This document shows positions 6,498-60,907 of a stretch of DNA of 64,000 nucleotides, piece after piece. The stretch spans positions 215,355 through 279,354 of the forward strand of contig DATLZZ010000010.1 of NCBI GenBank assembly GCA_035573715.1, read 5' to 3'. The notes under the pieces are model-generated. The model was given only the letters and a program-made list of their open reading frames with translations, was not told the DNA's origin and made no database searches. The number at the start of each line of letters is the position of its first letter. Within the stretch, counting starts at the first letter, position 1. A program made the translations under genes and the position numbers. This DNA comes from Candidatus Xenobia bacterium (GTDB lineage Bacteria; Acidobacteriota; Terriglobia; Acidiferrales; 2-02-FULL-67-57).

Positions 6498-7139
6498 CTA
6501 CCTGTTCCTCGGTTCAAAGGCCAGCGGACGGTCGAGCTCCAACTCGATGCGCGTCTTCTTTTGCAGCACCAGCGGTTTGCTGCCGCTGCTGAGCGCGCCG
6601 ACCAGCGCTCCCGCGCCAGCGCCGACACCCGCGCCGATGGCCGCCTCTTTTCCTCCGCCGGCGACCGCGCCAATAGCGGCGCCCGTGCCCGCGCCTACCC
6701 CGGCGCCGATGGCGGCGTTGCGCCCGCGGTTGCTGCCTTCAGCGCGGATCTCGCCTTCGTTGCTCACCTTCCTCTTCACGTTCTTCTCGCCGACCACGCC
6801 GACCACGGTGGCCACGATGGGCACTTTGTCCTTGCCGGTATCAATCGTTTCAAAGCGCAGCAGGAGGCGGCTCTTCTCGACGTGGGTCACACGCCCCTTG
6901 AGTTTGGCGCCGGCCTTGAGGTAGGCGCCGTTGCTGGCGTGGAGAGGCTCAATCGTGCGCGCTCCGAACTTCTTGCCCACTTTTGCTTTGCGCGCGTCGA
7001 GCTTGTCCTTCAGCTCCACCAGGAAGCGCGTGCCCGCCGGCACTTCCGTCAGCGACTCGTGCCCGGCGCGTACCGGCGCTGCCAGCAGGCTGAGGACGGC
7101 TACAAGTGCGGCGGCCAGCGTTCTCTTTGTCGTTCGCAT
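6498..7139 (-). CDS. secreted glycine-zipper protein (paralog 1 of 3)
   Basis: Signal peptide, beta-rich N-domain, AIGAGVGAGTGAAIGAVAGGG glycine-zipper segment. Paralogous to 11648-12256 and 28264-30177. Confidence 0.6.
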   Translation of the reverse strand: MRTTKRTLAAALVAVLSLLAAPVRAGHESLTEVPAGTRFLVELKDKLDARKAKVGKKFGARTIEPLHASNGAYLKAGAKLKGRVTHVEKSRLLLRFETIDTGKDKVPIVATVVGVVGEKNVKRKVSNEGEIRAEGSNRGRNAAIGAGVGAGTGAAIGAVAGGGKEAAIGAGVGAGAGALVGALSSGSKPLVLQKKTRIELELDRPLAFEPRNR

Positions 7140-8331: not shown

Positions 8332-9552
8332 CTAGTGGCTGCCACCCGGCTTGTTCGCCGCAGGATGGCCGGGGAAATGAACCGCCACGCCGCGCCAGCC
8401 GCTGTCGAGCGTCGCCGGCTCGCTGCGCAGCACGTAGCCGCTCAGACGCACCTCCACAGGATTCTTCTCGCCTCGTCCCTTGCCGAGCGCGCCGCCCGCG
8501 CCGTAGCCGTTGACCGGTAGCCGGACGGTGAGTTCGACGGGCTGCTGGGGCTCGTAGCGTGTTGGCGTCAGGAAGTAGGCGCCGTGGAAGCTGATGTTCT
8601 CCAGCTGCACCTGCTCCCGCAGGGCGCGGCCGTTGAGCCGCGTTTCGACCTCGACAGGCACCTGGGCGGCCATGCGCTGGCTCAGTCGGAGGCGGCGCGA
8701 GCCGACGCGTGTCTCGCCTCGCGCCACATCCATCACCATCCCTTCGGAAGCAGCCAGGGTGCGAGGGAATTCGCGTCGGGCCTGGCCGAGAATCTGGTCC
8801 ACCTCGTCGTCCGTGCGCCAGTGGTCGTGGTGGAAAAGGACAAGCTGCCTGACCCCGGCCTTCTTCGCCAGCCGCACCGCATCCTGCCAGGTGCCGTGGC
8901 CGACGCCGCGCTTGGCGCCGCGCAGCTCGTCGGCGAAATACTGAGCGTCGCAAACCAGCACGTCGGCGTCCCGAGAAAGCGCCACCAAAGCGTCGTCGAA
9001 TTCCGGCGCCCCGGGCTCGTGGTCGGTGGCGTAGACGATGGAGACGCCACCGCGATCGAGCCGGTAGGCCATCGAGCCGTCGGGATGGTTGAGCCGGCAG
9101 GTGCGGATGCGGGTGAGGCCGAGATAGTAGTCGGTCACCCACTCCAGTTCGCGCAGCGTGTAGGTGGCGTGGAGCTGGTCGAGCGGCTGCGGGAAAAACG
9201 GCGAGCGGAACAGGATGTCAAGCACGCCGCTGAGCGTGGCCGGCACGCTCTTGCCCGAGAGCGGCGGCCCGAAGAATTGCAGCGTGGTGTTGGCGTAGTA
9301 GAGCGGCTCGAAGAACGGCAGACCCTGGATGTGATCCCAGTGGTAGTGGCTGAGCAGGACGTTGACGTTGAGGTCAGCGCTGCGCCGCCTGACCAGTTCG
9401 TGGCCGAGGTCGCGGGCGCCGGTGCCGACGTCGAGGATAAAAATCTGGTCGCCGGTGCTAACCTCAAGGCAGGGCGTGTGGCCCCCATACCGCCACGCCC
9501 AGGGCTCCGGCGACGGGACTGAACCGCGCACTCCCCAGAAAGTCAGTTGCAC
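8332..9552 (-). CDS. MBL-fold metallo-hydrolase (PhnP/RNase Z-like) fused to C-terminal PilZ domain
   Basis: HxHxDH motif (SHYHWDH) and LTFWGVRGS N-terminus. C-terminal RxxxR (RLSQR) and NxSxxG (NISFHG) PilZ motifs. Start set at a GTG preceded by a GGGAGG Shine-Dalgarno. Confidence 0.75.
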   Translation of the reverse strand: MQLTFWGVRGSVPSPEPWAWRYGGHTPCLEVSTGDQIFILDVGTGARDLGHELVRRRSADLNVNVLLSHYHWDHIQGLPFFEPLYYANTTLQFFGPPLSGKSVPATLSGVLDILFRSPFFPQPLDQLHATYTLRELEWVTDYYLGLTRIRTCRLNHPDGSMAYRLDRGGVSIVYATDHEPGAPEFDDALVALSRDADVLVCDAQYFADELRGAKRGVGHGTWQDAVRLAKKAGVRQLVLFHHDHWRTDDEVDQILGQARREFPRTLAASEGMVMDVARGETRVGSRRLRLSQRMAAQVPVEVETRLNGRALREQVQLENISFHGAYFLTPTRYEPQQPVELTVRLPVNGYGAGGALGKGRGEKNPVEVRLSGYVLRSEPATLDSGWRGVAVHFPGHPAANKPGGSH

Positions 9553-9745
9553 GCTCTTGCCTCCCACGCGGGATGCTGCCACGTGCCCTCCGGCCTTTCT
9601 GTCGAACGTTCCCCCAGGCTGACTGCGCCCGCGCTGTCCCACAGGCGTGGAGGCGGGAAGAAACAGCCTAGCCCCGGCGAGACCGAAAAGTAACTGGTGA
9701 AGCGGCCAAACGAAGGACAGGGGGGATGCCTGTACCGCAGGGCAA

Positions 9746-10426
9746 TCAACGGCCAGTGCGGCCGGCGGCGCCCGGGCGCGACTGCCAGTAGAGCAGAATC
9801 AAATCGGTGCGGCGCTGCACGCCGAACTTGGCCAGCACGTTCGAGACGTGGAACTTGACCGTGCGCTCTGAGAGCGTCAGCCGCTGGGCGATTTCTTTGT
9901 TTGACATGTTGGCCAGCAGCGCCTCCAGCACTTCCTGCTCGCGCGGGCTGACGTAGGCGGGGCCGAAACTCCACCGCCGCGGGCCGAGGCCTTCCAGAAT
10001 CCAGTCGACGAACCGCGACAGCACCGGGCGCGGCACCCAGAACCCCCCGGCAGCGACGGCGCGCACCGCCTGCGCCAGTTGCGCCCGCGTCTGCGAGTAC
10101 GGCACCAAGCCCTTGGCGCCCAAGCGCAGGAGGGGAAAACTGTTGGCCTCGGTGAACTTCTCGGCCACGAGCAGCACGCGAGCCTTGGGTGAGCGCGAAA
10201 GGATGTTCGCCACCAGAGCTTCGGCGCCCGGGCGGGAGTCGGCGGCGTCAATCAGATAGAGCCGCGCTGAGGGCACCCGCCGGCGGCGAAGGTCGGAAGC
10301 CAGCCCCGACTCCAGGCGCACGGCGCGCACCGCGAAGCCGGCATCCGCCAGCAGGCGCTGCAGCTCGCTAAGCACCAGCGGATGCGAAGACAGCAAGCAC
10401 ACTGTCAGCCGGCCGCGGCCCGCCAT
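9746..10426 (-). CDS. LuxR-family response regulator (receiver-like domain plus HTH)
   Basis: C-terminal LuxR HTH (SPREQEVLEALLANMSNKEIAQRLTLSERTVKFHVSNVLAKFGV). Receiver-like N-domain with Asp (LYLIDAADS) but a weak acidic pocket. Confidence 0.7.
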   Translation of the reverse strand: MAGRGRLTVCLLSSHPLVLSELQRLLADAGFAVRAVRLESGLASDLRRRRVPSARLYLIDAADSRPGAEALVANILSRSPKARVLLVAEKFTEANSFPLLRLGAKGLVPYSQTRAQLAQAVRAVAAGGFWVPRPVLSRFVDWILEGLGPRRWSFGPAYVSPREQEVLEALLANMSNKEIAQRLTLSERTVKFHVSNVLAKFGVQRRTDLILLYWQSRPGAAGRTGR

Positions 10427-10473
10427 GCGTGGCACGCTACCCGAATTGTTGCCGCCGGGCAATAGTCTGTTGG

Positions 10474-10890
10474 TCAGTAATTCTGCCAGACGCCGGGAGT
10501 GGCGAGCTCGAGCAGGTGGCCGTCGGGGTCGCGGAAGTACAGGCTACGGCCGCCGAGCTCCCACTGCTTGCGCAGCTCGATGGCCAGCCCGTTCTGGCCC
10601 AGCCACCGCTCCCAGGCGTCGAAGTCTTCCGCCGCGATGGCGAAGGTGAGGTGGTCGGGGCCGGTGGTGTCAATCCCGCCGGGAAGAAAACCGCCTTCGT
10701 GCGAAACGCGCTCGATGGAAGCCCCCTGCTTGAACAGCAGCAGAACTTGCTGGGGCGCCACTGCCAGCGCGTGCAGCCGCTCGGAGGAGGCGATGACTTC
10801 AAAGCCGAAGATGCGACAGTAGAACTCGACCGCGCGCTTTACGTCCTGCACGAACAGGGCGGTCTCGAGAATCCCCTTCACCGGCGGCAT
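10474..10890 (-). CDS. VOC/glyoxalase-bleomycin resistance family protein
   Basis: Glyoxalase-like fold sequence (ALFVQDVKRAVEFYCRIFGFEV ... LYFRDPDGHLLEL). Start at an internal Met with a GGAGG Shine-Dalgarno. Confidence 0.75.
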   Translation of the reverse strand: MPPVKGILETALFVQDVKRAVEFYCRIFGFEVIASSERLHALAVAPQQVLLLFKQGASIERVSHEGGFLPGGIDTTGPDHLTFAIAAEDFDAWERWLGQNGLAIELRKQWELGGRSLYFRDPDGHLLELATPGVWQNY

Positions 10891-11647: not shown

Positions 11648-12256
11648 TTACTGACTGATGGCCAGGTCTTCCTTCAGGCGGAAGCGCAGGCGGGTTTCAG
11701 CCGGGTAGCGGATGTCGCGCTGCCCGGTGAGCGCCGCGGCACCGGTACCGCTGCCCGCGCCCACGCCGGCGCCGATGGCCGCCCCCTTGCCGCCGCCGGC
11801 CAGGCCGCCGATCAAGGCGCCCAAGCCGGTGCCGCCGCCGATGAACAGCACGTTGCGCTTCAGTTTGCTGCCCTCGCGGCGGCCGGTGGTCGAGGTTTCG
11901 ACGTCATAGCTATCGCCGTCCACCTCGACCTCGGTCAGGGTCATAAACAGCCGGCCACTGCCCTTGAAGCGGCCGGAGGCCTCGGCGTCAACCACTTCGC
12001 CGGTGACCTCCGAGCCAGCCGGGATGATCACCTTGTCGCCCACCACCACGTCGTGGTCGAGGACGCCGGTGAAGTCATCGCCCGGCTCATTGGTCTTGGA
12101 GCTCAAGCTCTGCGTCAGCCGCACGGTGAGCTCCGTCCCCGCCGGCACAATCACCGGTTCTGGCCTGAGTACGTAGGTGGCTCCCACAATCAGCGACGCT
12201 GCGAGCAGCACCGCTGCCGTGGCCACCCAAAGGCTCTTGCCCTTAGGAATGCGCAT
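11648..12256 (-). CDS. secreted glycine-zipper protein (paralog 2 of 3)
   Basis: Signal peptide, GLGALIGGLAGGGKGAAIGAGVGAGSG zipper. Same architecture as 6498-7139. Confidence 0.6.
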   Translation of the reverse strand: MRIPKGKSLWVATAAVLLAASLIVGATYVLRPEPVIVPAGTELTVRLTQSLSSKTNEPGDDFTGVLDHDVVVGDKVIIPAGSEVTGEVVDAEASGRFKGSGRLFMTLTEVEVDGDSYDVETSTTGRREGSKLKRNVLFIGGGTGLGALIGGLAGGGKGAAIGAGVGAGSGTGAAALTGQRDIRYPAETRLRFRLKEDLAISQ

Positions 12257-12407
12257 GATTGCTACCTCCAGGCGACGTGTCGCCCGTTTCAAGCCTAAAC
12301 AGAGGCCTTCGAGCCCCGAAAAGGTTGTCCGTTATTTCCTAAGTGTTTTACTTGCAAGAGATTAGCTCAGAAATCGAGCATTTTCCTGTCCGTGAGCCGG
12401 TCGCGCC

Positions 12408-12530
12408 GTGCGGTTTTTGCGGTTTTTGCGGTTTTCGCGGTTTTTGCGGTTTTGCCGTTGTCCCAGAAGGCCGGAAAAATTACAACCAGAAAAAAAACAA
12501 CCGCAAAAACCGCAAAAACCGCAAAAACCG
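12408..12530. repeat. inverted array of tandem 9-mers (GCGGTTTTT x5 ... AAACCGCAA x4)
   Basis: Direct tandem 9-bp repeats on one arm and their reverse complement on the other arm, separated by an A-rich spacer. Lies immediately upstream of the glucosaminidase operon. Confidence 0.7.
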
Positions 12531-12555
12531 TAGACAAGCGGCGGCGGCTGTCGCT

Positions 12556-13116
12556 ATGGAAGACGTGGTTGAACCGATGAGCGACAACCAGGTGAAGCGA
12601 GAATCGAATCGAACCCAGGCCCGCGCCGCCGCGCTTCTGAATGACGACAAGGGGCGATTCCTGGCGGAACTGGCTCCGGCGGTGCAGCGGTTGGCGGCGC
12701 GCACCGGCCTGCCGGCGTCGGCCGTGCTCGCGCAAGCCATTCTGGAATCGAACTGGGGGCGATCGGCGCTGGCGCGGCAAGCCCACAATCTGTTTGGAAT
12801 CAAGGCGCGTCGCGGCGCGCGGGCTTCCGCCACGTTCAACACGACAGAGTACGAGGGCGGGGAGGCGCGGCGCGAGGCGGCGCGCTTCGCGGCCTACGCG
12901 AGCTACGAGGACTGCCTCGGCGACTACGCCCGGGTTCTCGCTCACCCGCGCTACTTGCGGGCGCGCCGCGTGGCCGCCAACCCGCTGGCGTTCGTGGTGG
13001 AGCTGCAGCGCGCCGGCTACGCCACCGATCCGCACTACGCGCACAAGCTGGCGCTGCTCATCCGCCGCTATCGCCTCACCCAGTACGACGTCCCGCGAAA
13101 GGAGCCCACGCCATGA
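12556..13116 (+). CDS. glucosaminidase-domain peptidoglycan hydrolase (FlgJ/endolysin-like), no signal peptide
   Basis: LAQAILESNWGRSALARQAHNLFGIKA glucosaminidase motif. AT-rich repeat-derived upstream ATG rejected as start. Confidence 0.65.
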   Translation: MEDVVEPMSDNQVKRESNRTQARAAALLNDDKGRFLAELAPAVQRLAARTGLPASAVLAQAILESNWGRSALARQAHNLFGIKARRGARASATFNTTEYEGGEARREAARFAAYASYEDCLGDYARVLAHPRYLRARRVAANPLAFVVELQRAGYATDPHYAHKLALLIRRYRLTQYDVPRKEPTP

Positions 13117-13550
13117 GTCTCAGTTTCGCCAATCGCCGCCTTGTCTTTCTCCTGCTTCTAACCTCCAGCCTCCTGCTTCCGGGCTGCGGCGACTTCGAGC
13201 GCAACGCCTACCGCACCCTCAAGGTCGCCAAAGTCGAATACGAGCTTCTGCAGGAGCACGCCGCGCGCGCCTACCTGGAGGGCCGGCTGACGGAGCCGCA
13301 GTGGGAGCGCTTCGCGGTGGCCGGCAACCGCTTCATCGCCGCGCACACCCTCGCGGCTGACCTGATGAAGACCTACCAGCAAGTGCGGCGCGCGGGTTCG
13401 TCGGAGGACGAGCGGGCGCGCCTCGAGGCGCGCATCAACGCCGCGCTGGCTCAGTTGCCGGTGCTGCTGGCCGACCTGCGGGCGCTGCTGGGCTCGTTCG
13501 ACTCCGGCGGCGCCGCGGCGGCCGATGAGAGTCGTCAATCGAGGAGGTAG
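13113..13550 (+). CDS. lipoprotein (lipobox LLPGC), helical
   Basis: Signal peptide plus lipobox. ATGA start/stop overlap with the upstream gene. Confidence 0.55.
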   Translation: MSLSFANRRLVFLLLLTSSLLLPGCGDFERNAYRTLKVAKVEYELLQEHAARAYLEGRLTEPQWERFAVAGNRFIAAHTLAADLMKTYQQVRRAGSSEDERARLEARINAALAQLPVLLADLRALLGSFDSGGAAAADESRQSRR

Positions 13551-13553
13551 CCC

Positions 13554-13751
13554 ATGGCCATCACCAAACGCGACATCGTTACCTGGGCAGAACTGATTCA
13601 GCTCATCTCGCAGATGCTGCTTGCCGGCGTCGCCGCGCTGAAAGATGACGAGCCGGTGGACTTCGACGCAGTCAAGATCGCGCTCACGCCCGAGGAGGCC
13701 GTGCGGCGCCTGCGCCCGGAGGGAACGGCGAAACTGGAAAAGGGAGAATAG
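13554..13751 (+). CDS. small hypothetical protein (65 aa)
   Basis: Tightly spaced within the operon (4-nt gaps). Coding-like GC3. Confidence 0.4.
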   Translation: MAITKRDIVTWAELIQLISQMLLAGVAALKDDEPVDFDAVKIALTPEEAVRRLRPEGTAKLEKGE

Positions 13752-13754
13752 CGA

Positions 13755-14288
13755 GTGACCACTGAAGTATTGGCAACCGAGCAAAGCAGGACGCCCGAGC
13801 GGCGTTACCTGAAGGCGACGCTGGCGGGCGCGGGCGGCATGCTGGCGCTGCTGTGGTTTCTGCTGGAGCAGCGCCCCGAGCTGGCGCAGCTTCTGCTGGA
13901 GCGCATCGTCATCGCCTGGGGACCGCAGTTCGTCATTCTGCTTCTCCTGTTCGGCTTTCTCTATCTGCTGGCCGACCGCTACGCGCCGCGACTCATCGCC
14001 GCCCAGCGGGAAACGGCGGTGGCCTTGCAAAGCCTGGCGCGCGCGGTCGAGCAGTTGGTGGCGCGGGAGAACTCGTTCCAGCGCGAGCAGGACGTGCTGC
14101 TGAACCACGTCGCCCGGCGCGTCGAAGCCATCCACAAGCTCCTCAACGGCCGTCTCCACCGACTGGCTCGCGCTTCTTCCGAGCCACCGCCGAAAAAGGC
14201 TCGCCCGCGTTCGGCACGGCCCAACCCGGGCCAGCGGTCCTCGAAGCCGGAGTTGGCAGTTGCAAATCACGTTCTTTCCTCTACTTGA
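13755..14288 (+). CDS. membrane protein (2 TM) with charged C-terminal tail
   Basis: Two hydrophobic helices (LAGAGGMLALLWFLL and VILLLLFGFLYLL). GTG start 4 nt after the previous stop. Confidence 0.5.
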   Translation: MTTEVLATEQSRTPERRYLKATLAGAGGMLALLWFLLEQRPELAQLLLERIVIAWGPQFVILLLLFGFLYLLADRYAPRLIAAQRETAVALQSLARAVEQLVARENSFQREQDVLLNHVARRVEAIHKLLNGRLHRLARASSEPPPKKARPRSARPNPGQRSSKPELAVANHVLSST

Positions 14289-14364
14289 CTCCCCTCCGCC
14301 TGCCCCCTACAATCTCCCTGTCGTTTGGGGTCGGGTTTCACCACAGAGGGCAGAGGAAACAACT

Positions 14365-15636
14365 TTGCGCATCACCTTTTGGGGGGTGCGAGGTTCTACT
14401 CCCACACCCGCGCGCCACACGTGGCGCTATGGGGGCAACACGCCGTGCGTCGAGCTGCGCCTGCCCGACCAACTGGTTTTGATTGACGCCGGCACCGGCA
14501 TCCGAGAGCTCGGCCAGCAGCTCCTCGCCGAAGCCCGCCCCGATTCGGCCGGTGCTCCGCCCAAGCCCATCAACGTCTCTCTGCTGTTCTCTCACTACCA
14601 CTGGGACCACATCCAGGGCCTACCGTTTTTCGCGCCCATCTATGCGCCCGGGAACACCGTTCGCCTTTACGGGCCGCGCTTCCGCGACGTCGCCGGCTCG
14701 TCGCTCTCGGCGGCGCTTCAAGCGCTGTTTTGCGCGCCGTTTTTCCCGGTGCTGGCCACCGACCTGCGCGCCGCCCATCCCATCGAAGAATTTGACGACA
14801 ACGCCAGCTTCTCGCTGGGCGATCTCCGGGTGCGCGCCTGCCGGGTCAATCACCCGCAGGGCTCGGTCGCCTATCGCTTCGAGCACGGCGGGGCTTCGGT
14901 CGTCTATGCGACCGACCACGAGCCGGGCAACGAGGAAATTGACCGGCGGCTGCGCAACTTCGCGCGCGGCGCCGACGTGCTTATCACCGACGCCCAGTAT
15001 TTCCCCGAGCAGCTTGTCGCCGAGCGCAAAGGCTGGGGCCACAGCTCGTGGCAGGCGGCCACCGAACTGGCGCGGGCGGCCGAGGTCAAGAACCTGATCC
15101 TCTTCCACCACGAGCCGACCCACAGCGACGAAGTGCTGGACGCGATTCTGGTTCGCGCCCGGGGGGCTTTTGCCAACACTCACTCGGCCACGGAAACGCT
15201 GGTGGTGGAGGTGCGCCGCCGGGAAGTGCTCTTCGCCAATCGCCCGGCGCGGCTCAGTCAGCGCGCCGACGTCCACCTGCCGGTCCACGTCGAGACCACG
15301 CAGGACGGCGCGCGGGTGCGGGAGGAGGCGTACCTGGCTAACCTCAGCTTCCACGGCGCCTATATCCTGAGCCCGCATCACTTCGAGCCCCAGCAGTCCA
15401 TCGAAATCGCCGTGCCGCTGCAGCCCGACCCGTCCGCCGCCACCGCTGCGCACCACGGGAAGGGAGCTCCGCCGGGAGAATTTCGCCTCAAAGGGGTGGT
15501 GCTGCGCACGGAGCCGCAGACGACCAACGGCCACTGGGAAGGCGTGGCGGTGATTTTCCCCGACGCCCAGGGCCGTGTCCCCGCCCAGCCGAAGGCGCCG
15601 CCCAAGCCCGGCCCCGACTCCGACACCACCTCGTAG
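14365..15636 (+). CDS. MBL-fold metallo-hydrolase (PhnP/RNase Z-like) fused to C-terminal PilZ domain (paralog 2)
   Basis: LRITFWGVRGS, SHYHWDH. PilZ motifs RLSQR and NLSFHG. TTG start with a GAGG Shine-Dalgarno. Confidence 0.75.
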   Translation: MRITFWGVRGSTPTPARHTWRYGGNTPCVELRLPDQLVLIDAGTGIRELGQQLLAEARPDSAGAPPKPINVSLLFSHYHWDHIQGLPFFAPIYAPGNTVRLYGPRFRDVAGSSLSAALQALFCAPFFPVLATDLRAAHPIEEFDDNASFSLGDLRVRACRVNHPQGSVAYRFEHGGASVVYATDHEPGNEEIDRRLRNFARGADVLITDAQYFPEQLVAERKGWGHSSWQAATELARAAEVKNLILFHHEPTHSDEVLDAILVRARGAFANTHSATETLVVEVRRREVLFANRPARLSQRADVHLPVHVETTQDGARVREEAYLANLSFHGAYILSPHHFEPQQSIEIAVPLQPDPSAATAAHHGKGAPPGEFRLKGVVLRTEPQTTNGHWEGVAVIFPDAQGRVPAQPKAPPKPGPDSDTTS

Positions 15637-16036: not shown

Positions 16037-16360
16037 TCAATCTTCTTCCCCCACTACACCGGCCTGCCATTCCTTCTGCACAGTGTCTCTGTAAACCAGC
16101 CAGCGGCCGCCGACGCGCCGGCCCGCCAACTGGCCCTCGTGGAGCCAGCGGTAAATCGTGTCGGGGGATTTCCCCAGGAGCTTCGCTGCGGCCACAGCCG
16201 AGATCAGCTCGCGCTTCTCCTGCTGGGCCAGCAGCGCGCGCGCCCTCTCGAACTGTGCGGACTTGGGCCGCTCTTCGTCCTTCGGCGGAAGCTTGGACGG
16301 CGGCGCAATCACCGCGAGCCTCTCCCCGTGGCCTGTCGCGCATCCATACTCGGCTCCCAT
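16037..16360 (-). CDS. HTH DNA-binding protein (excisionase/MerR-like)
   Basis: AAAKLLGKSPDTIYRWLHEGQLAGRRVGGRWLV helix-turn-helix. Start uncertain; overlaps the end of the Gam-like gene. Confidence 0.45.
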   Translation of the reverse strand: MGAEYGCATGHGERLAVIAPPSKLPPKDEERPKSAQFERARALLAQQEKRELISAVAAAKLLGKSPDTIYRWLHEGQLAGRRVGGRWLVYRDTVQKEWQAGVVGEED

Positions 16361-16998
16361 CGCTTTAGCGCCTCCCAGTTGAGTTCATAGAACCACTTCT
16401 CCCGTTGCTGCAACCGGACCCCGGCGCGCTGTAGCCTGCGACGCACTCGCGCCCCGGGCCCGTTCTTCCCCACGGCTTGGAGAAAGAACTGCCGCAAGGA
16501 GTCGCGATCGAGCTCCGTGCGGACGCGCAGGAACTGCTGGCCGGGGCGCCAATTGGCCAGAGCTCGCAAGGCGCGCGCTTCATCCTGGATGCTCACCGCG
16601 CGCGCCGTTCGATACCCCACGCGCCCAAACCGCAGCGTCCTTGACTTGCGCGCGTGCCCGTCGATCCGTGCCAACTCGTCGTGGCGGCGACAAAACTTCT
16701 CGATGGCCCTTTCCAGCCTCACCCGCTGGGACTCCAGCGGGGCCCGACGCGCGGAAATCTCCGATTCCAGTCGAGCCCGCGCCTCGGCCCCTGCTCTCTC
16801 GAGTGTGCCGAGTTGCAGGGTCAATTGCGCCAGTTGCAGGAGTGACTTCTCAACCTCCAACCAGCAGGAAACGGCCCCGCTCGCACGCGCCCTTGGCTTG
16901 CTTTGACCCGGGTGCGTGGCGCGGGGCTGGAAATGGTTCCAGGGGACGGGAAGGACTGGCTTTCGACTCGCCCGGCTACGGGAAGAAAGGGCTTGCAT
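16309..16998 (-). CDS. Mu Gam-like host-nuclease inhibitor family protein
   Basis: Coiled-coil N-region followed by KSRTLRFGRVGYRTARAVSIQDEARALRALANWRPGQQFLRVRTELDRDSLRQFF, which aligns with the Mu Gam core. Start uncertain. Confidence 0.55.
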   Translation of the reverse strand: MQALSSRSRASRKPVLPVPWNHFQPRATHPGQSKPRARASGAVSCWLEVEKSLLQLAQLTLQLGTLERAGAEARARLESEISARRAPLESQRVRLERAIEKFCRRHDELARIDGHARKSRTLRFGRVGYRTARAVSIQDEARALRALANWRPGQQFLRVRTELDRDSLRQFFLQAVGKNGPGARVRRRLQRAGVRLQQREKWFYELNWEALKRWEPSMDARQATGRGSR

Positions 16999-17031
16999 GT
17001 GACCCACCAATGAGCTACTATCGACTCGAAA

Positions 17032-17053
17032 GGTGTACACCTAACAGGTGTAC
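17032..17053. promoter_or_regulatory. candidate operator: perfect palindrome GGTGTACACC plus adjacent half-site AGGTGTAC
   Basis: Located in the 63-bp divergent intergenic region between the Gam-like gene and the cI-like repressor gene. Confidence 0.5.
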
Positions 17054-17061
17054 TTTGTCAA

Positions 17062-17832
17062 ATGGTTTCTGCGCGCGACAGTTGGCCAAGCAAAATCAAG
17101 CAGTTACGGGACTCGCTTGGCCTCTCGCAGGAGCAGTTGGCCCGCCGGCTTGAGGTAACCAAGAAGACGATTGCGGAATGGGAGCAGGCGCGGCAGGTAC
17201 CGAGCGCAGAGCGAGCTCTGCAACTGGCGCGGTTGGCCGCCCCGGGAGAGTTGCGTCGGTGGTTGATTCGGCAGGCGCTCGATCGGATCGGCGCCGATGA
17301 GGGTTTGCTTGAGGATGCCCTGGGCGCGCGACGGCGCGGCCGCCAGGCGCCGCTGCCGGTTGCCGGGTTGCGGGTAATTCCTTCCGCGGATCTGAGCGAC
17401 CGCTTTCGAGCGCTGGAGGGGCTGAGCGACTTTGTCCCGATTCCGTTGCTGCGGGACGCGGCGGCGGCGGGCTCACCGCGGGAAATTTCCGAGGAGGACA
17501 TCGAAGGCTACGCGATGATTCAATACGCGTGGTGCCCGAACCCGGCCGAGTTCACTTGCGTGCGGGTTCGCGGCGCTTCGATGTCGCCGATTCTGCTGGA
17601 TGGGGCGGTGGTGGCGATTGACCACTTGCAGCGCGACCCGCAGGCGCTGCACCAGAAAATGGTTGCCGCCCGCGTGGAGGATGGCGTGACCATCAAGTGG
17701 CTCAACCTCCAGCCCGACGGCTCTCTGCTCCTTGTCCCGGAGAACAAGAACTACCCTGCCATCCCGCTGCCGCGCACGCCCACAAACCCCATCGTGGGCC
17801 TGGTGGCCTGGTGGTGGAACCGACAGCGCTGA
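17062..17832 (+). CDS. phage cI/LexA-type repressor (XRE HTH plus S24 peptidase domain)
   Basis: N-terminal HTH (LRDSLGLSQEQLARRLEVTKKTIAEWE). C-terminal S24 domain with the Ser (GASMSP) and Lys (KWLNLQ) catalytic dyad context. Confidence 0.75.
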   Translation: MVSARDSWPSKIKQLRDSLGLSQEQLARRLEVTKKTIAEWEQARQVPSAERALQLARLAAPGELRRWLIRQALDRIGADEGLLEDALGARRRGRQAPLPVAGLRVIPSADLSDRFRALEGLSDFVPIPLLRDAAAAGSPREISEEDIEGYAMIQYAWCPNPAEFTCVRVRGASMSPILLDGAVVAIDHLQRDPQALHQKMVAARVEDGVTIKWLNLQPDGSLLLVPENKNYPAIPLPRTPTNPIVGLVAWWWNRQR

Positions 17833-60571: not shown

Positions 60572-60907
60572 ATGGGGACGACCGGCACATATGCTTCCGG
60601 AATCGACCGGCGGGAAGATCACCGCACCACTTTTTTTGCCGAAGCGGAATATGAGTGGGGCGGCAACAAAATGCGCGCCCGCATCCTCAACCTCAGCCTG
60701 GGCGGAATGCTGATGGAGACGCGCGCCCCGCTTCCGGCGATGGCCCAGTTCGTCGCCACGCTGCATCTGGCGGAAGGGCCGCCGCTGGAAGCAATCTGCG
60801 TGGTGAAGCGCCTGGTGCCTGGCGTGGGCATGGGGGTGGAGTTCGTCGACCTCAAGCCCTCCGACCACATCCGCCTGCGGCGCATCGTCGAATCCCTGCC
60901 GCACTAG
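60572..60907 (+). CDS. stand-alone PilZ-domain protein
   Basis: RxxxR (REDHR) and NxSxGG (NLSLGG) motifs. Confidence 0.7.
   Translation: MGTTGTYASGIDRREDHRTTFFAEAEYEWGGNKMRARILNLSLGGMLMETRAPLPAMAQFVATLHLAEGPPLEAICVVKRLVPGVGMGVEFVDLKPSDHIRLRRIVESLPH

Follow-up and report, generated by a model that had tools for sequence, protein, structure and literature searches.

MBL-PilZ proteins of Acidobacteriota as candidate phosphodiesterases under the control of c-di-GMP

The window considered here, the whole stretch of 64,000 nucleotides that was analysed and to which all positions refer, contains two genes that encode an MBL-fold (metallo-beta-lactamase) domain and a PilZ domain within a single protein. 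Both folds are present, the catalytic residues and the residues for binding of c-di-GMP are intact and under strong conservation, and the proteins belong to a family whose MBL core is fused to signalling modules. An active metallo-phosphodiesterase under the control of c-di-GMP, exerted through PilZ, is a likely description of these proteins. The original prediction had placed a phosphodiester-hydrolysing enzyme under such control, which is still the best reading of a phosphodiesterase-type MBL domain and a PilZ domain in one protein, with binding and control presumed from this arrangement. The prediction that the substrate is a cNMP is tentative and falls somewhat short of even odds. For the statement as a whole, a c-di-GMP-gated phosphodiesterase acting on cNMP, we estimate a probability of roughly 0.4. 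The MBL-PilZ family is widespread in databases and unreported in the literature searched.

Gene models and genomic neighbourhood

The gene of paralogue 1 (8332..9552, minus strand) encodes 406 amino acids followed by a stop codon, with its 3' end, stop codon counted, at 8332. The gene model draws on the list of open reading frames, the Shine-Dalgarno sequence, Pfam and an AlphaFold2 model of the full-length protein (pLDDT 87.6, pTM 0.76). The mechanical reading frame extends to 9642. The GTG codon at 9552 is the better start, because it is preceded at a distance of 7-8 nt by the Shine-Dalgarno sequence GGGAGG and because the resulting N-terminus agrees with those of homologues, for example MQLTFWGVRGS in a relative with 70% identity. 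The longer frame was dropped on these grounds, and the start at 9552 is retained as originally given. The N-terminal sequence ITFWGVRGS that had been assigned to paralogue 1 belongs to paralogue 2, and paralogue 1 reads LTFWGVRGS.

Paralogue 2 (14365..15636, plus strand) was identified by BLASTP and Pfam and is the second copy that had been noted at a distance of 5 kb. It encodes 423 aa from a TTG start with AGAGGA upstream, shares 46% identity over 415 aa with paralogue 1 (BLASTP), matches Lactamase_B_2 (1.2e-21) as well as PilZ (8.1e-5), and is identical in 422 of 423 residues to the database protein P0022. The pair consists of two ancient paralogues. A stand-alone PilZ protein, also part of the original prediction, is encoded at 60572..60907 (plus strand, 111 aa). 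Its match to Pfam PilZ (8.1e-10) spans positions 1-101 of the 102-position profile and its sequence carries the motifs REDHR and NLSLGG, and the genome therefore uses PilZ-type c-di-GMP receptors. GGDEF, EAL or HD-GYP motifs were not found in the proteins of the window by regular expressions, a crude test, and a motif scan of the window detected no cyclase, CRP-type or cNMP-binding gene.

Two further genes on the minus strand precede paralogue 1, and the original prediction had combined them with it into an operon-like run with LuxR and VOC genes. The upstream neighbour (9746..10462, Pfam GerE 9.8e-19) encodes a NarL/FixJ-type REC-GerE regulator with near full-length PDB matches to VraR, DevR, ChrA and NarL. 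The label LuxR is misleading, as the protein resembles a response regulator of this type and not an autoinducer receptor. The second gene (10474..10860, Pfam Glyoxalase 7.3e-15) encodes a member of the VOC/glyoxalase family and lies 11 nt upstream of the regulator gene, and the gap from the regulator to the MBL-PilZ gene is 193 nt. The three genes have the same order at loci L003-L007, and only relatives with 87% and 70% identity retain it. In a relative of 55% identity a kinase gene on the opposite strand is located between the regulator and the MBL-PilZ gene, and in distant members the neighbours of the MBL-PilZ gene are unrelated. The scan for promoters and terminators yielded 0 promoters and one weak hairpin, versus 2.2 expected, and is uninformative. 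Given the gap of 193 nt, the restriction of synteny to relatives of at least 70% identity and the outcome of the scan, we reject an operon: the arrangement is only local synteny, and the regulator gene is probably not part of the MBL-PilZ unit. No c-di-GMP riboswitch or other RNA element was found near the MBL-PilZ genes with Rfam; the matches near these genes were spurious miRNA only, on a long hairpin at 12416-12534.

Elsewhere, in Ca. Acidiferrales-type genomes, the MBL-PilZ gene adjoins a divergent CDF cation-efflux gene and an 84-aa ORF (25 and 14 loci). In Terriglobales, stand-alone cores have trpE/trpG, gdh and a gene for a CDP-alcohol phosphatidyltransferase as neighbours. We ascribe these conserved neighbourhoods (CDF, trpE/trpG) to synteny within lineages and regard them as uninformative on function. 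Genes for Mu Gam, HTH_17 and an S24 repressor near the MBL-PilZ genes form a small Mu-like remnant beside housekeeping genes. A phage origin of the MBL-PilZ genes was considered and rejected, as the family is chromosomal, its housekeeping contexts vary and no viral match covers two domains; a search of BFVD returned no viral protein with both MBL and PilZ domains (best TMq 0.44).

The MBL domain, its class and its fusions

The MBL-fold phosphodiesterase domain of paralogue 1 (8722..9552, minus strand, residues 1-277) was assigned by means of Pfam, an alignment of 73 homologues, Foldseek and a profile search of the PDB. The HxHxDH metallo-beta-lactamase motif that the original prediction ascribed to the N-terminal domain is present as HYHWDH (residues 69-74), together with a Pfam match to Lactamase_B_2 (PF12706, E 1.5e-16). 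The predicted metal ligands and catalytic residues are S68-H69-x-H71-x-D73-H74, H156, D177, D202, H219 and H241. Except for S68, all of them are invariant in the 73 homologues; residue 68 varies only between T (56 sequences) and S (17), which gives the signature [T/S]HxHxDH. This signature in combination with PF12706 defines the atypical class-II PDEs (Thomson et al. 2022, PMC9293780), a definition under which paralogue 1 falls with S68-HYHWDH and its match to PF12706. Here Y and W occupy the x positions and are larger than usual, as small or hydrophobic residues prevail at these positions in atypical class-II PDEs (PMC9293780).

The nearest functional class consists of the arm-less cyclic-nucleotide phosphodiesterases of the YhfI/Rv1339/CpdA/Apyc1 type. 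YhfI (6KNS), Rv1339 and CpdA share with the MBL-PilZ proteins an MBL fold without tRNA arm and the signature [T/S]HxHxDH with downstream His, Asp and His ligands. Unlike the MBL-PilZ proteins with their C-terminal PilZ, they are single-domain proteins of 245-275 aa without a sensor, and the N-terminus FWGVRGS...WRYGGNTPC sets the MBL-PilZ proteins apart from them. YhfI is the best PDB match for the single sequence of paralogue 1 (6kns, 9e-10, ~22% identity), and in the Foldseek comparison of the model it equals RNase Z (TM 0.78-0.82). The NCBIfam model NF041851 'cyclic nucleotide-degrading phosphodiesterase' aligns over positions 2-243 (242/253), with scores of 66.5 bits for paralogue 1 and 56.1 bits for paralogue 2 that lie below its equivalog cut-off of 400. 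At the level of sequence, the MBL-PilZ proteins thus appear as a family related to the NF041851 phosphodiesterases and not as an equivalog. Apyc1 (PF23023; 7U2R, 7U2S) is likewise an MBL-fold cNMP phosphodiesterase and a structural match (E ~3e-12), albeit weaker than YhfI or RNase Z, and differs in being phage-borne, whereas the MBL-PilZ proteins are chromosomal and vertically conserved. Precomputed matches to PF23023 (Anti-Pycsar_Apyc1) exist in many homologues, are 'weak' in paralogue 2 and in the homologue P0003, and do not appear among the entries for the nearest relatives of paralogue 1; our local copy of Pfam did not report PF23023.

The combination of both domains, which had been considered uncommon, is carried by nearly all of the best 120 database clusters (90% identity), mostly from uncultured Acidobacteriota. 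In the literature searched (PilZ together with MBL, Lactamase_B, RNase Z or domain architectures) no description of the MBL-PilZ architecture was found, and nothing relevant on REC with an MBL output domain. A survey of PilZ proteins does not list MBL among the fusion partners (bioRxiv 10.1101/814665). Profile A3 of the MBL core retrieves 3043 clusters of 50% identity at E<=1e-30, and most members are stand-alone proteins of ~275 aa. The fusions of the core comprise REC-MBL (7), MBL-REC (2), MBL-HisKA-HATPase, MBL-GAF-histidine kinase, MBL-GAF, MBL-PAS and MBL-PilZ. In addition, the protein P0145 is composed of MBL, REC and a class III nucleotide cyclase, with HFHWDH intact; a cyclase fusion was seen once among ~150 representatives of the core. 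Because it is fused to REC, GAF, PAS, histidine kinase and cyclase domains, the MBL core is a signalling enzyme module. It occurs in the same kinds of modular architecture as REC/GAF/PAS-fused GGDEF, EAL and HD-GYP domains and class III cyclases, but the catalytic module is an MBL fold and not EAL or HD-GYP. Members are currently annotated as 'MBL fold metallo-hydrolase', 'PhnP-like' or 'RNase Z', and to our knowledge no catalogue lists the core among the output domains of signalling.

The relationship to RNase Z and RNase BN (ELAC; 1Y44, 2CBN) deserves closer attention, since these enzymes are closest by profile. The family profile matches RNase BN/ZipD (2cbn, 6.5e-19) and RNase Z (1y44, 2.6e-17) above YhfI (4.3e-12). 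The structure 1y44 is also the top Foldseek match of the MBL domain, in a list that includes YhfI 6kns, BA1088 1zkp, PhnP and Apyc1 7u2s, and the best NCBIfam E-values are those of RNase Z models. The five MBL motifs are shared, and in the alignment the invariant D202 and H219 fall at the positions of the HEAT and HST loops of RNase Z. The MBL domain might accordingly cut RNA, in 3'-end trimming or oligoribonucleotide turnover as RNase Z/RNase BN do, and PilZ would then tie RNA processing or decay to c-di-GMP. We regard such a c-di-GMP-regulated ribonuclease as unlikely. The RNase Z models TIGR02651 and NF000801 reach 67-72 bits versus cut-offs of 252-293 (252 for the score of 72) and align well over the C-terminal third only. 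The flexible arm or exosite for tRNA binding, which in RNase Z sits between the motif III histidine and the motif IV aspartate, is absent: 21 residues separate H156 from D177 and form a plain beta-hairpin in the model, which therefore leaves no room for the arm, and ~35 fewer residues are found between the aligned blocks than in B. subtilis RNase Z. The MBL-PilZ proteins further differ from RNase Z in their fusion to PilZ, and links of the core to REC, GAF, PAS, cyclase and kinase modules are what one typically sees in second-messenger enzymes, not in RNases. Membership in RNase Z is rejected on the scores and the missing arm. The identity 'PhnP/RNase Z-like' of the original prediction is abandoned for the same reasons, its PhnP half on the scores given below.

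Chances are smaller still that the protein is a non-signalling ester hydrolase (PhnP-like, a 2',3'-cNMP diesterase, an alkyl- or aryl-sulfatase or a lactonase) in which PilZ ties a metabolic step to lifestyle. The JGI family name is 'phosphoribosyl 1,2-cyclic phosphodiesterase', the structural neighbours include PhnP, a PhnP-family diphosphatase, an MBL arylsulfatase and PqqB, and weak NCBIfam matches exist to PhnP (TIGR03307) and to the AidB lactonase. The scores for TIGR03307, however, are 22.5 and 32.5 bits versus a cut-off of 272, no phn (C-P lyase) genes were found in the neighbourhood within the window or at related loci, and pqq or sulfur-metabolism genes were likewise missing at every locus examined. 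Membership in PhnP is therefore rejected, and the fusions to signalling domains speak against plain metabolism in general. A phosphodiesterase for c-di-GMP, pGpG or another cyclic di- or oligonucleotide, with PilZ as a substrate-level sensor for feed-forward degradation, is improbable: PilZ is fused to GGDEF, EAL and HD-GYP in other proteins (bioRxiv 10.1101/814665) and the MBL domain is a generic scaffold of nucleotide phosphodiesterases, but neither the sequence neighbours nor the structural ones include an MBL-fold c-di-GMP hydrolase, the fusion of the core to class III cyclase and GAF domains indicates mononucleotides, and Apyc1 is described as a cyclic-mononucleotide enzyme (PMC9117128).

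The PilZ domain and the linker

The C-terminal part of paralogue 1 consists of an inter-domain linker (8674..8721, minus strand, residues ~278-293), defined by pLDDT and alignment, and a PilZ beta-barrel (8335..8673, minus strand, residues ~294-406), defined by Pfam, a domain model and Foldseek. The linker contains RLSQR (289-293) with R289 and R293, and the barrel contains NISFHG (319-324), that is N319-I-S321-F-H-G324, as well as a clade-specific Gly-rich loop at ~349-365. The PilZ motifs claimed for the C-terminus, RxxxR and, at the canonical spacing of ~20-30 residues, [D/N]xSxxG, are thus intact, and Pfam and fold search agree on the domain. Alongside Lactamase_B_2, paralogue 1 matches Pfam PilZ (PF07238) with E 8.8e-5 and 23.2-23.4 bits, marginal with respect to the gathering cut-off of 22.5; paralogue 2 scores 23.3 bits, above gathering, and homologues reach 36.6 bits. 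In the alignment of 73 sequences the only invariant positions of the C-terminal domain are R289, R293, S321, G324 and F393, position 319 is D or N in 73/73, and the position before R289 is occupied mostly by S, T, A or L and not by R. Among the best 120 homologues, ~15% are without one of the two PilZ motifs.

A separate model of the C-terminal 129 residues (pLDDT 82) has six strands and is without the canonical C-terminal helix of PilZ. The first ~35 PDB matches of this model in Foldseek are all PilZ domains, many of them c-di-GMP complexes, and are led by MotI/DgrA, the PilZ domain of BcsA, Alg44, PA0012, MrkH, VCA0042, MapZ and YcgR; the structural comparison thus bears out a PilZ fold. Linker residues 288-291 have a pLDDT <50 in the full-length model, and a low value at this position is expected of the apo form of a c-di-GMP switch. 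With BcsA, Alg44, VCA0042/PlzD, YcgR and MotI the protein shares the PilZ barrel, which bears [D/N]xSxxG, and the flexible linker ahead of it, which bears RxxxR. The expected logic is that of the BcsA/YcgR type, in which c-di-GMP re-positions linker and domain and thereby alters the activity of the partner; unlike in this group, the partner of PilZ is here a soluble MBL phosphodiesterase. As far as sequence and model allow, the C-terminus looks like a genuine canonical PilZ domain and is a predicted c-di-GMP receptor.

The PilZ domain could also have lost the ability to bind c-di-GMP and have become an adaptor for protein-protein contacts or a structural appendage, like PilZ of Xanthomonas and Pseudomonas, with an enzyme that is constitutive or otherwise regulated. 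The marginal Pfam score, the lack of a modelled helix and the loss of a motif in some homologues are compatible with this explanation. A profile of the C-terminal domain matches only PilZ proteins in the PDB, and its best matches are weak (E 0.04-0.15) and belong to non-binding type IV pilus PilZ proteins. These matches, however, span only the motif-free C-terminal half of the domain, whereas the structural matches are mostly c-di-GMP complexes. Non-binding PilZ proteins are characteristically without RxxxR and [D/N]xSxxG, and the residues contacting c-di-GMP (R289, R293, D/N319, S321 and G324) are precisely the conserved ones of the domain. There is hence little to recommend a non-binding PilZ domain.

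Proposed mechanism and implications

We propose that the MBL-PilZ protein acts as a cytoplasmic two-domain signalling enzyme. Its N-terminal domain would be an active, probably dimeric, binuclear-metal phosphodiesterase of the arm-less, RNase Z-related MBL branch that includes the atypical class-II PDEs YhfI of B. subtilis, Rv1339 of M. tuberculosis and CpdA of C. glutamicum as well as Apyc1 of phages. c-di-GMP is predicted to bind between the arginines of the linker (RxxxR) and the PilZ barrel, probably as a monomer on the model of VCA0042/PlzD, which likewise has a residue other than Arg ahead of RxxxR. Binding would fix the linker and change the orientation of PilZ with respect to the MBL domain or dimer, an allosteric switch that may either activate or shut down the phosphodiesterase. 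A 3',5'-cyclic mononucleotide, whether cAMP, cGMP or a different cNMP, is the most likely substrate, so that the level of c-di-GMP would be coupled directly to that of cNMP. Among the related enzymes, YhfI prefers cAMP/cGMP and Apyc1 cleaves cNMPs broadly (PMC9117128).

Several observations count against a c-di-GMP-gated cNMP phosphodiesterase. On the side of the MBL domain, these are the score below the NF041851 cut-off, the position of RNase Z/BN above YhfI by profile, the Y and W of the signature, the single cyclase fusion, the outcome of the motif scan for cNMP, GGDEF and EAL genes in the window, and the uninformative neighbourhoods. On the side of PilZ, they are the marginal score, the ~15% of the best 120 homologues without a motif and the helix missing from the model.

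Among the known targets of PilZ-type c-di-GMP receptors are glycosyltransferases, flagellar motors, chemotaxis proteins and transcription factors. We know of no PilZ receptor that controls an MBL-fold nucleotide phosphodiesterase. If cNMP is indeed degraded, the MBL-PilZ proteins would constitute crosstalk between c-di-GMP and cNMP signalling within one protein, one messenger switching off another, in Acidobacteriota, which are abundant in soil and in which signalling has hardly been studied. It is rather doubtful that this function and a role of the core defined by FWGVRGS and [T/S]HYHWDH as an unrecognised, widespread signalling output domain both hold true. The second point may nevertheless matter more, since the same MBL core is fused to signalling modules in thousands of proteins, which suggests an output domain of two-component and second-messenger systems that has so far gone uncatalogued. 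The core would then join GGDEF, EAL, HD-GYP and the class III cyclases as an output domain, driven by phosphorylation (REC-MBL), small ligands (GAF/PAS) or c-di-GMP (PilZ).

Two genes encoding MBL-PilZ proteins and their surroundings

The first gene (paralogue 1) ends at position 8332 on the minus strand. Its open reading frame extends mechanically to a GTG at 9642 (436 aa in the ORF list), a longer start that was discarded: the GTG at 9552 has GGGAGG at the proper distance upstream and gives a product of 406 aa whose N-terminus, (M)QLTFWGVRGS, is common to the homologues. The gene and its predicted start at 9552 are thus borne out, as is the predicted fusion: Pfam assigns Lactamase_B_2 to the N-terminus (E 1.5e-16) and PilZ to residues 289-393 (E 8e-5, 23.2-23.4 bits versus a gathering score of 22.5). 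The second copy (paralogue 2, plus strand, 14365-15636) carries the same two Pfam domains with 46% identity over 415 residues. It lies within an ORF of 14260-15636, and its actual start is the TTG at 14365, since the resulting 423 aa match the database protein P0022 at 422 of 423 positions. The ITFWGVRGS start originally ascribed to paralogue 1 belongs to this copy; paralogue 1 has LTFWGVRGS. The predicted stand-alone PilZ protein (60572-60907) is a solid match (E 8.1e-10).

On the minus strand of the window, paralogue 1 follows a VOC/glyoxalase gene (10474-10860) and a REC-GerE regulator gene (9746-10462), with gaps of 11 nt between the first two genes and 193 nt before the MBL-PilZ gene. The regulator, predicted as LuxR, matches VraR, DevR, ChrA and NarL across most of its length and is therefore described as a NarL/FixJ-type response-regulator-like protein. 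In its receiver, SS (CLLSSHPL) replaces the N-terminal acidic DD pair and the putative phospho-acceptor Asp is kept (LYLID). The protein is perhaps an atypical response regulator, possibly one that works independently of phosphorylation. The gene order is retained in the relatives with 87% and 70% identity, whereas the 193-nt gap, and an opposite-strand Ser/Thr kinase gene between regulator and MBL-PilZ genes in the 55% relative, speak against an operon. We treat the 'operon-like run' of the original prediction as local synteny. Scans for promoters, terminators and riboswitches near the MBL-PilZ genes gave no signal clarifying the transcription units. In genomes of the Ca. Acidiferrales type (loci L001 and L009-L034; e.g. 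L001 6773-7912), MBL-PilZ adjoins a divergent CDF cation-efflux gene and a small ORF: 25 loci have the CDF gene (Cation_efflux and ZT_dimer) in head-to-head orientation, and 14 have, downstream, a conserved 84-aa ORF that matches no Pfam family.

We note several further features of the region. Two ~213-aa secreted/lipoprotein-like proteins (6498-7139 and 11648-12292, both minus strand; 31% identity over 183 aa), each beta-rich in the N-terminal part, with a YMGG-type glycine zipper at the C-terminus, lie one near each flank of the paralogue 1 cluster, with equivalents in the relatives' loci L003 and L006. The divergent intergenic region between a Gly-zipper gene and a glucosaminidase gene contains a long AT-rich hairpin (12409-12530) amid 65% GC DNA, in which five tandem 9-mers (TGCGGTTTT) stand opposite their reverse complement (repeats of AAAACCGCA); the hairpin's 35-nt arms, 50 nt apart, are 94% complementary. 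Rfam e-value-mode miRNA matches at this site are spurious. The plus-strand stretch 12556-14288 consists of the glucosaminidase-domain gene, a 145-aa ORF whose signal (LLLPGCG) resembles a lipobox, and a membrane-associated-looking 177-aa ORF, a lysis-cassette-like arrangement conserved upstream of the paralogue 2-like gene in locus L002. Beside paralogue 2 lies a Mu-like remnant (16037-17832), comprised of HTH_17 (16037-16360, minus), Phage_Mu_Gam (16309-17040, minus) and an HTH_3 plus Peptidase_S24 repressor (17062-17832, plus), followed by housekeeping genes; in the 70% relative of paralogue 1, a Portal_Mu gene (L003 655-1929) is directly upstream of the cluster.

Assignment of the MBL and PilZ domains

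The AlphaFold2 model of full-length paralogue 1 (pLDDT 87.6, pTM 0.76) is confident apart from the linker (288-291), the tail and a clade-specific Gly-rich loop (351-356). None of the expected metal and catalytic residues varies (H69, H71, D73, H74, H156, D177, H241, D202, H219). The structural neighbours of the MBL domain (residues 1-277) comprise B. subtilis RNase Z (1Y44), YhfI (6KNS/6KNT) and BA1088 (1ZKP), as well as ELAC1, PhnP, PqqB and Apyc1. The best PDB match by single sequence is YhfI (9e-10); the family profile ranks RNase BN (6.5e-19) and RNase Z (2.6e-17) before BA1088 and YhfI. An RNA nuclease, to which this ranking and the alignment of D202 and H219 with the RNase Z HEAT and HST loop positions would point, is nevertheless unlikely: the segment of the tRNA-binding arm is reduced to a 21-residue hairpin in the model. 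The PhnP/RNase Z-like identity originally proposed is not upheld, as the curated RNase Z and PhnP models reach 22-72 bits against cut-offs of 252-293. Hydrolysis of other esters, including 2',3'-cNMP or PhnP-like cyclic phosphates, is less likely still, the structural resemblance to PhnP standing against these failed models.

Across 73 aligned full-length homologues, position 68 holds only T or S, giving a [T/S]HxHxDH signature. Together with PF12706, this signature defines the 'atypical class-II PDEs' (Rv1339, YhfI, CpdA), placed beside RNase Z (Thomson et al., PMC9293780). The model NF041851 ('cyclic nucleotide-degrading phosphodiesterase') aligns nearly end to end, but with 66 bits versus a cut-off of 400, and many homologues have precomputed matches to PF23023 (Anti-Pycsar_Apyc1). 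YhfI strongly prefers cAMP/cGMP and Apyc1 cleaves cNMPs broadly (Hobbs et al., PMC9117128). Taken together, the failed models, the hairpin, the signature and the similarity to YhfI, NF041851 and Apyc1 identify the MBL domain as a predicted arm-less, RNase Z-related phosphodiesterase of a separate family, whose nearest characterised functional relatives are cyclic-mononucleotide phosphodiesterases. Hydrolysis of c-di-GMP, pGpG or a cyclic oligonucleotide is the least likely of the activities considered.

Because the Pfam score of the PilZ domain is marginal, conservation, profile and fold were considered in addition. Among the 73 homologues, only R289, R293, S321, G324 and F393 are invariant in the C-terminal ~125 residues, and position 319 is either D (42) or N (31); the conserved positions are exactly the c-di-GMP-contacting motifs RxxxR and [D/N]xSxxG. 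In the PDB, a profile of the domain matches PilZ proteins alone, with weak E-values of 0.04-0.28. The AlphaFold2 model of residues 278-406 (pLDDT 82, six strands) has PilZ domains as its first ~35 PDB fold matches, many as c-di-GMP complexes, including MotI/DgrA, BcsA, Alg44, PA0012, MrkH, VCA0042, MapZ, YcgR and PlzA. A PilZ fold is therefore detectable in the C-terminus, as originally predicted. The canonical PilZ C-terminal helix is absent from the model. Arg is seldom found directly before RxxxR (53 of 73 homologues have S, T, A or L there); in VCA0042 a non-Arg residue at this position is said, after Ko et al. in 2010, to go with monomeric c-di-GMP binding, and the L135R mutant structure 3KYG is among the fold matches. 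That the domain no longer binds c-di-GMP, whatever the substrate, is improbable given its invariant motifs.

Distribution and fusion partners

A word-indexed search returned 5984 clusters (E<=1e-5). Nearly all of the best 120 are ~400 aa with PF12706 and PF07238, and ~100 share both PilZ motifs at identical spacing; the combination, predicted to be uncommon, is therefore not uncommon in sequence space. All are from MAGs of uncultured organisms, chiefly Ca. Acidiferrales, Acidoferrum and other Acidobacteriota. Their names in the source databases are generic, such as 'MBL fold metallo-hydrolase', 'phosphoribosyl 1,2-cyclic phosphodiesterase', 'ribonuclease Z' and, once, 'PilZ domain-containing protein'. 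Both domains are of known kinds, PilZ control of enzymes is a known principle and the combination is already in databases, mis-annotated or under generic names; hence it does not count as a new category. The literature searched yielded neither a mention of the combination nor a description of a PilZ-gated MBL phosphodiesterase. The PilZ survey of Galperin and Chou (bioRxiv 10.1101/814665) lists REC, GGDEF, EAL, HD-GYP, MCP, CheC, HlyD and glycosyltransferase partners, and no hydrolase of MBL type. The two paralogues represent two old lineages, with relatives at 87%, 70% and 55% identity for paralogue 1 and 88%, 64% and 60% for paralogue 2; both lineages occur on a single contig of a related MAG (L002). 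P0022 is labelled 'MAG TPA: Candidatus Xenobia bacterium' (Vulcanimicrobiota) at NCBI, the other close relatives all being labelled Acidobacteriota; this means either that the family is not confined to Acidobacteriota or that the MAG of P0022 is wrongly labelled or binned.

A profile of the MBL core alone, searched against 1.84 billion representatives, matched 3043 clusters with E<=1e-30, rising to 8609 with E<=1e-10. The 150 best matches are for the most part stand-alone proteins of ~270-300 aa from Terriglobales, Polyangia, Bryobacteraceae and other lineages; about a quarter have extra domains. Pfam scans of 20 of the latter identified REC-MBL (P0177, P0190, P0202, P0208, P0248, P0253, P0259), MBL-REC (P0215, P0233), MBL-REC-class III adenylate/guanylate cyclase (P0145), MBL-HisKA-HATPase (P0132), MBL-GAF-histidine kinase (P0146, P0173), MBL-GAF (P0239), MBL-PAS (P0128) and MBL-PilZ with a long linker (P0031, P0034, P0043); P0122 and P0220 gave no further Pfam domain. 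Of the 141 representatives that this search added, 140 keep HxHxDH intact. Such a set of partners is characteristic of a catalytic domain that metabolises second messengers, with the cyclase and GAF partners pointing to cyclic mononucleotides; beyond similarity, it supplies the strongest new argument for the function proposed. The core seems to act as an enzymatic output domain, so far uncatalogued, in two-component and second-messenger signalling. In Verrucomicrobia, one MBL-core gene (L078 6001-9189) seems to run ~765 codons further, with an in-frame internal stop, and could represent a gene fusion, a pseudogene or a misassembly.

A proposed c-di-GMP-controlled phosphodiesterase

A complete predicted binuclear-metal phosphodiesterase site and a complete predicted PilZ c-di-GMP site are joined in one protein by a flexible linker bearing RxxxR. 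Strong purifying selection acts on both sites, and the core of the enzyme is reused widely as a signalling module. We consider a c-di-GMP-controlled active phosphodiesterase the best reading (probability about 0.8). By analogy with VCA0042/PlzD, YcgR and BcsA, c-di-GMP would bind between the linker arginines and the PilZ barrel, order the linker and shift the PilZ domain against the MBL domain or the dimer partner, altering phosphodiesterase activity in either direction. YhfI and RNase Z form homodimers, as does Apyc1, whose catalysis needs residues of the opposing protomer (PMC9117128). The most likely substrate would be a 3',5'-cNMP, an assignment that we hold tentatively and at somewhat less than even odds; the protein would then convert the c-di-GMP level into a cNMP level. 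As a modular signalling output domain, the core offers a concrete, testable route to a mechanism of c-di-GMP/cNMP crosstalk.
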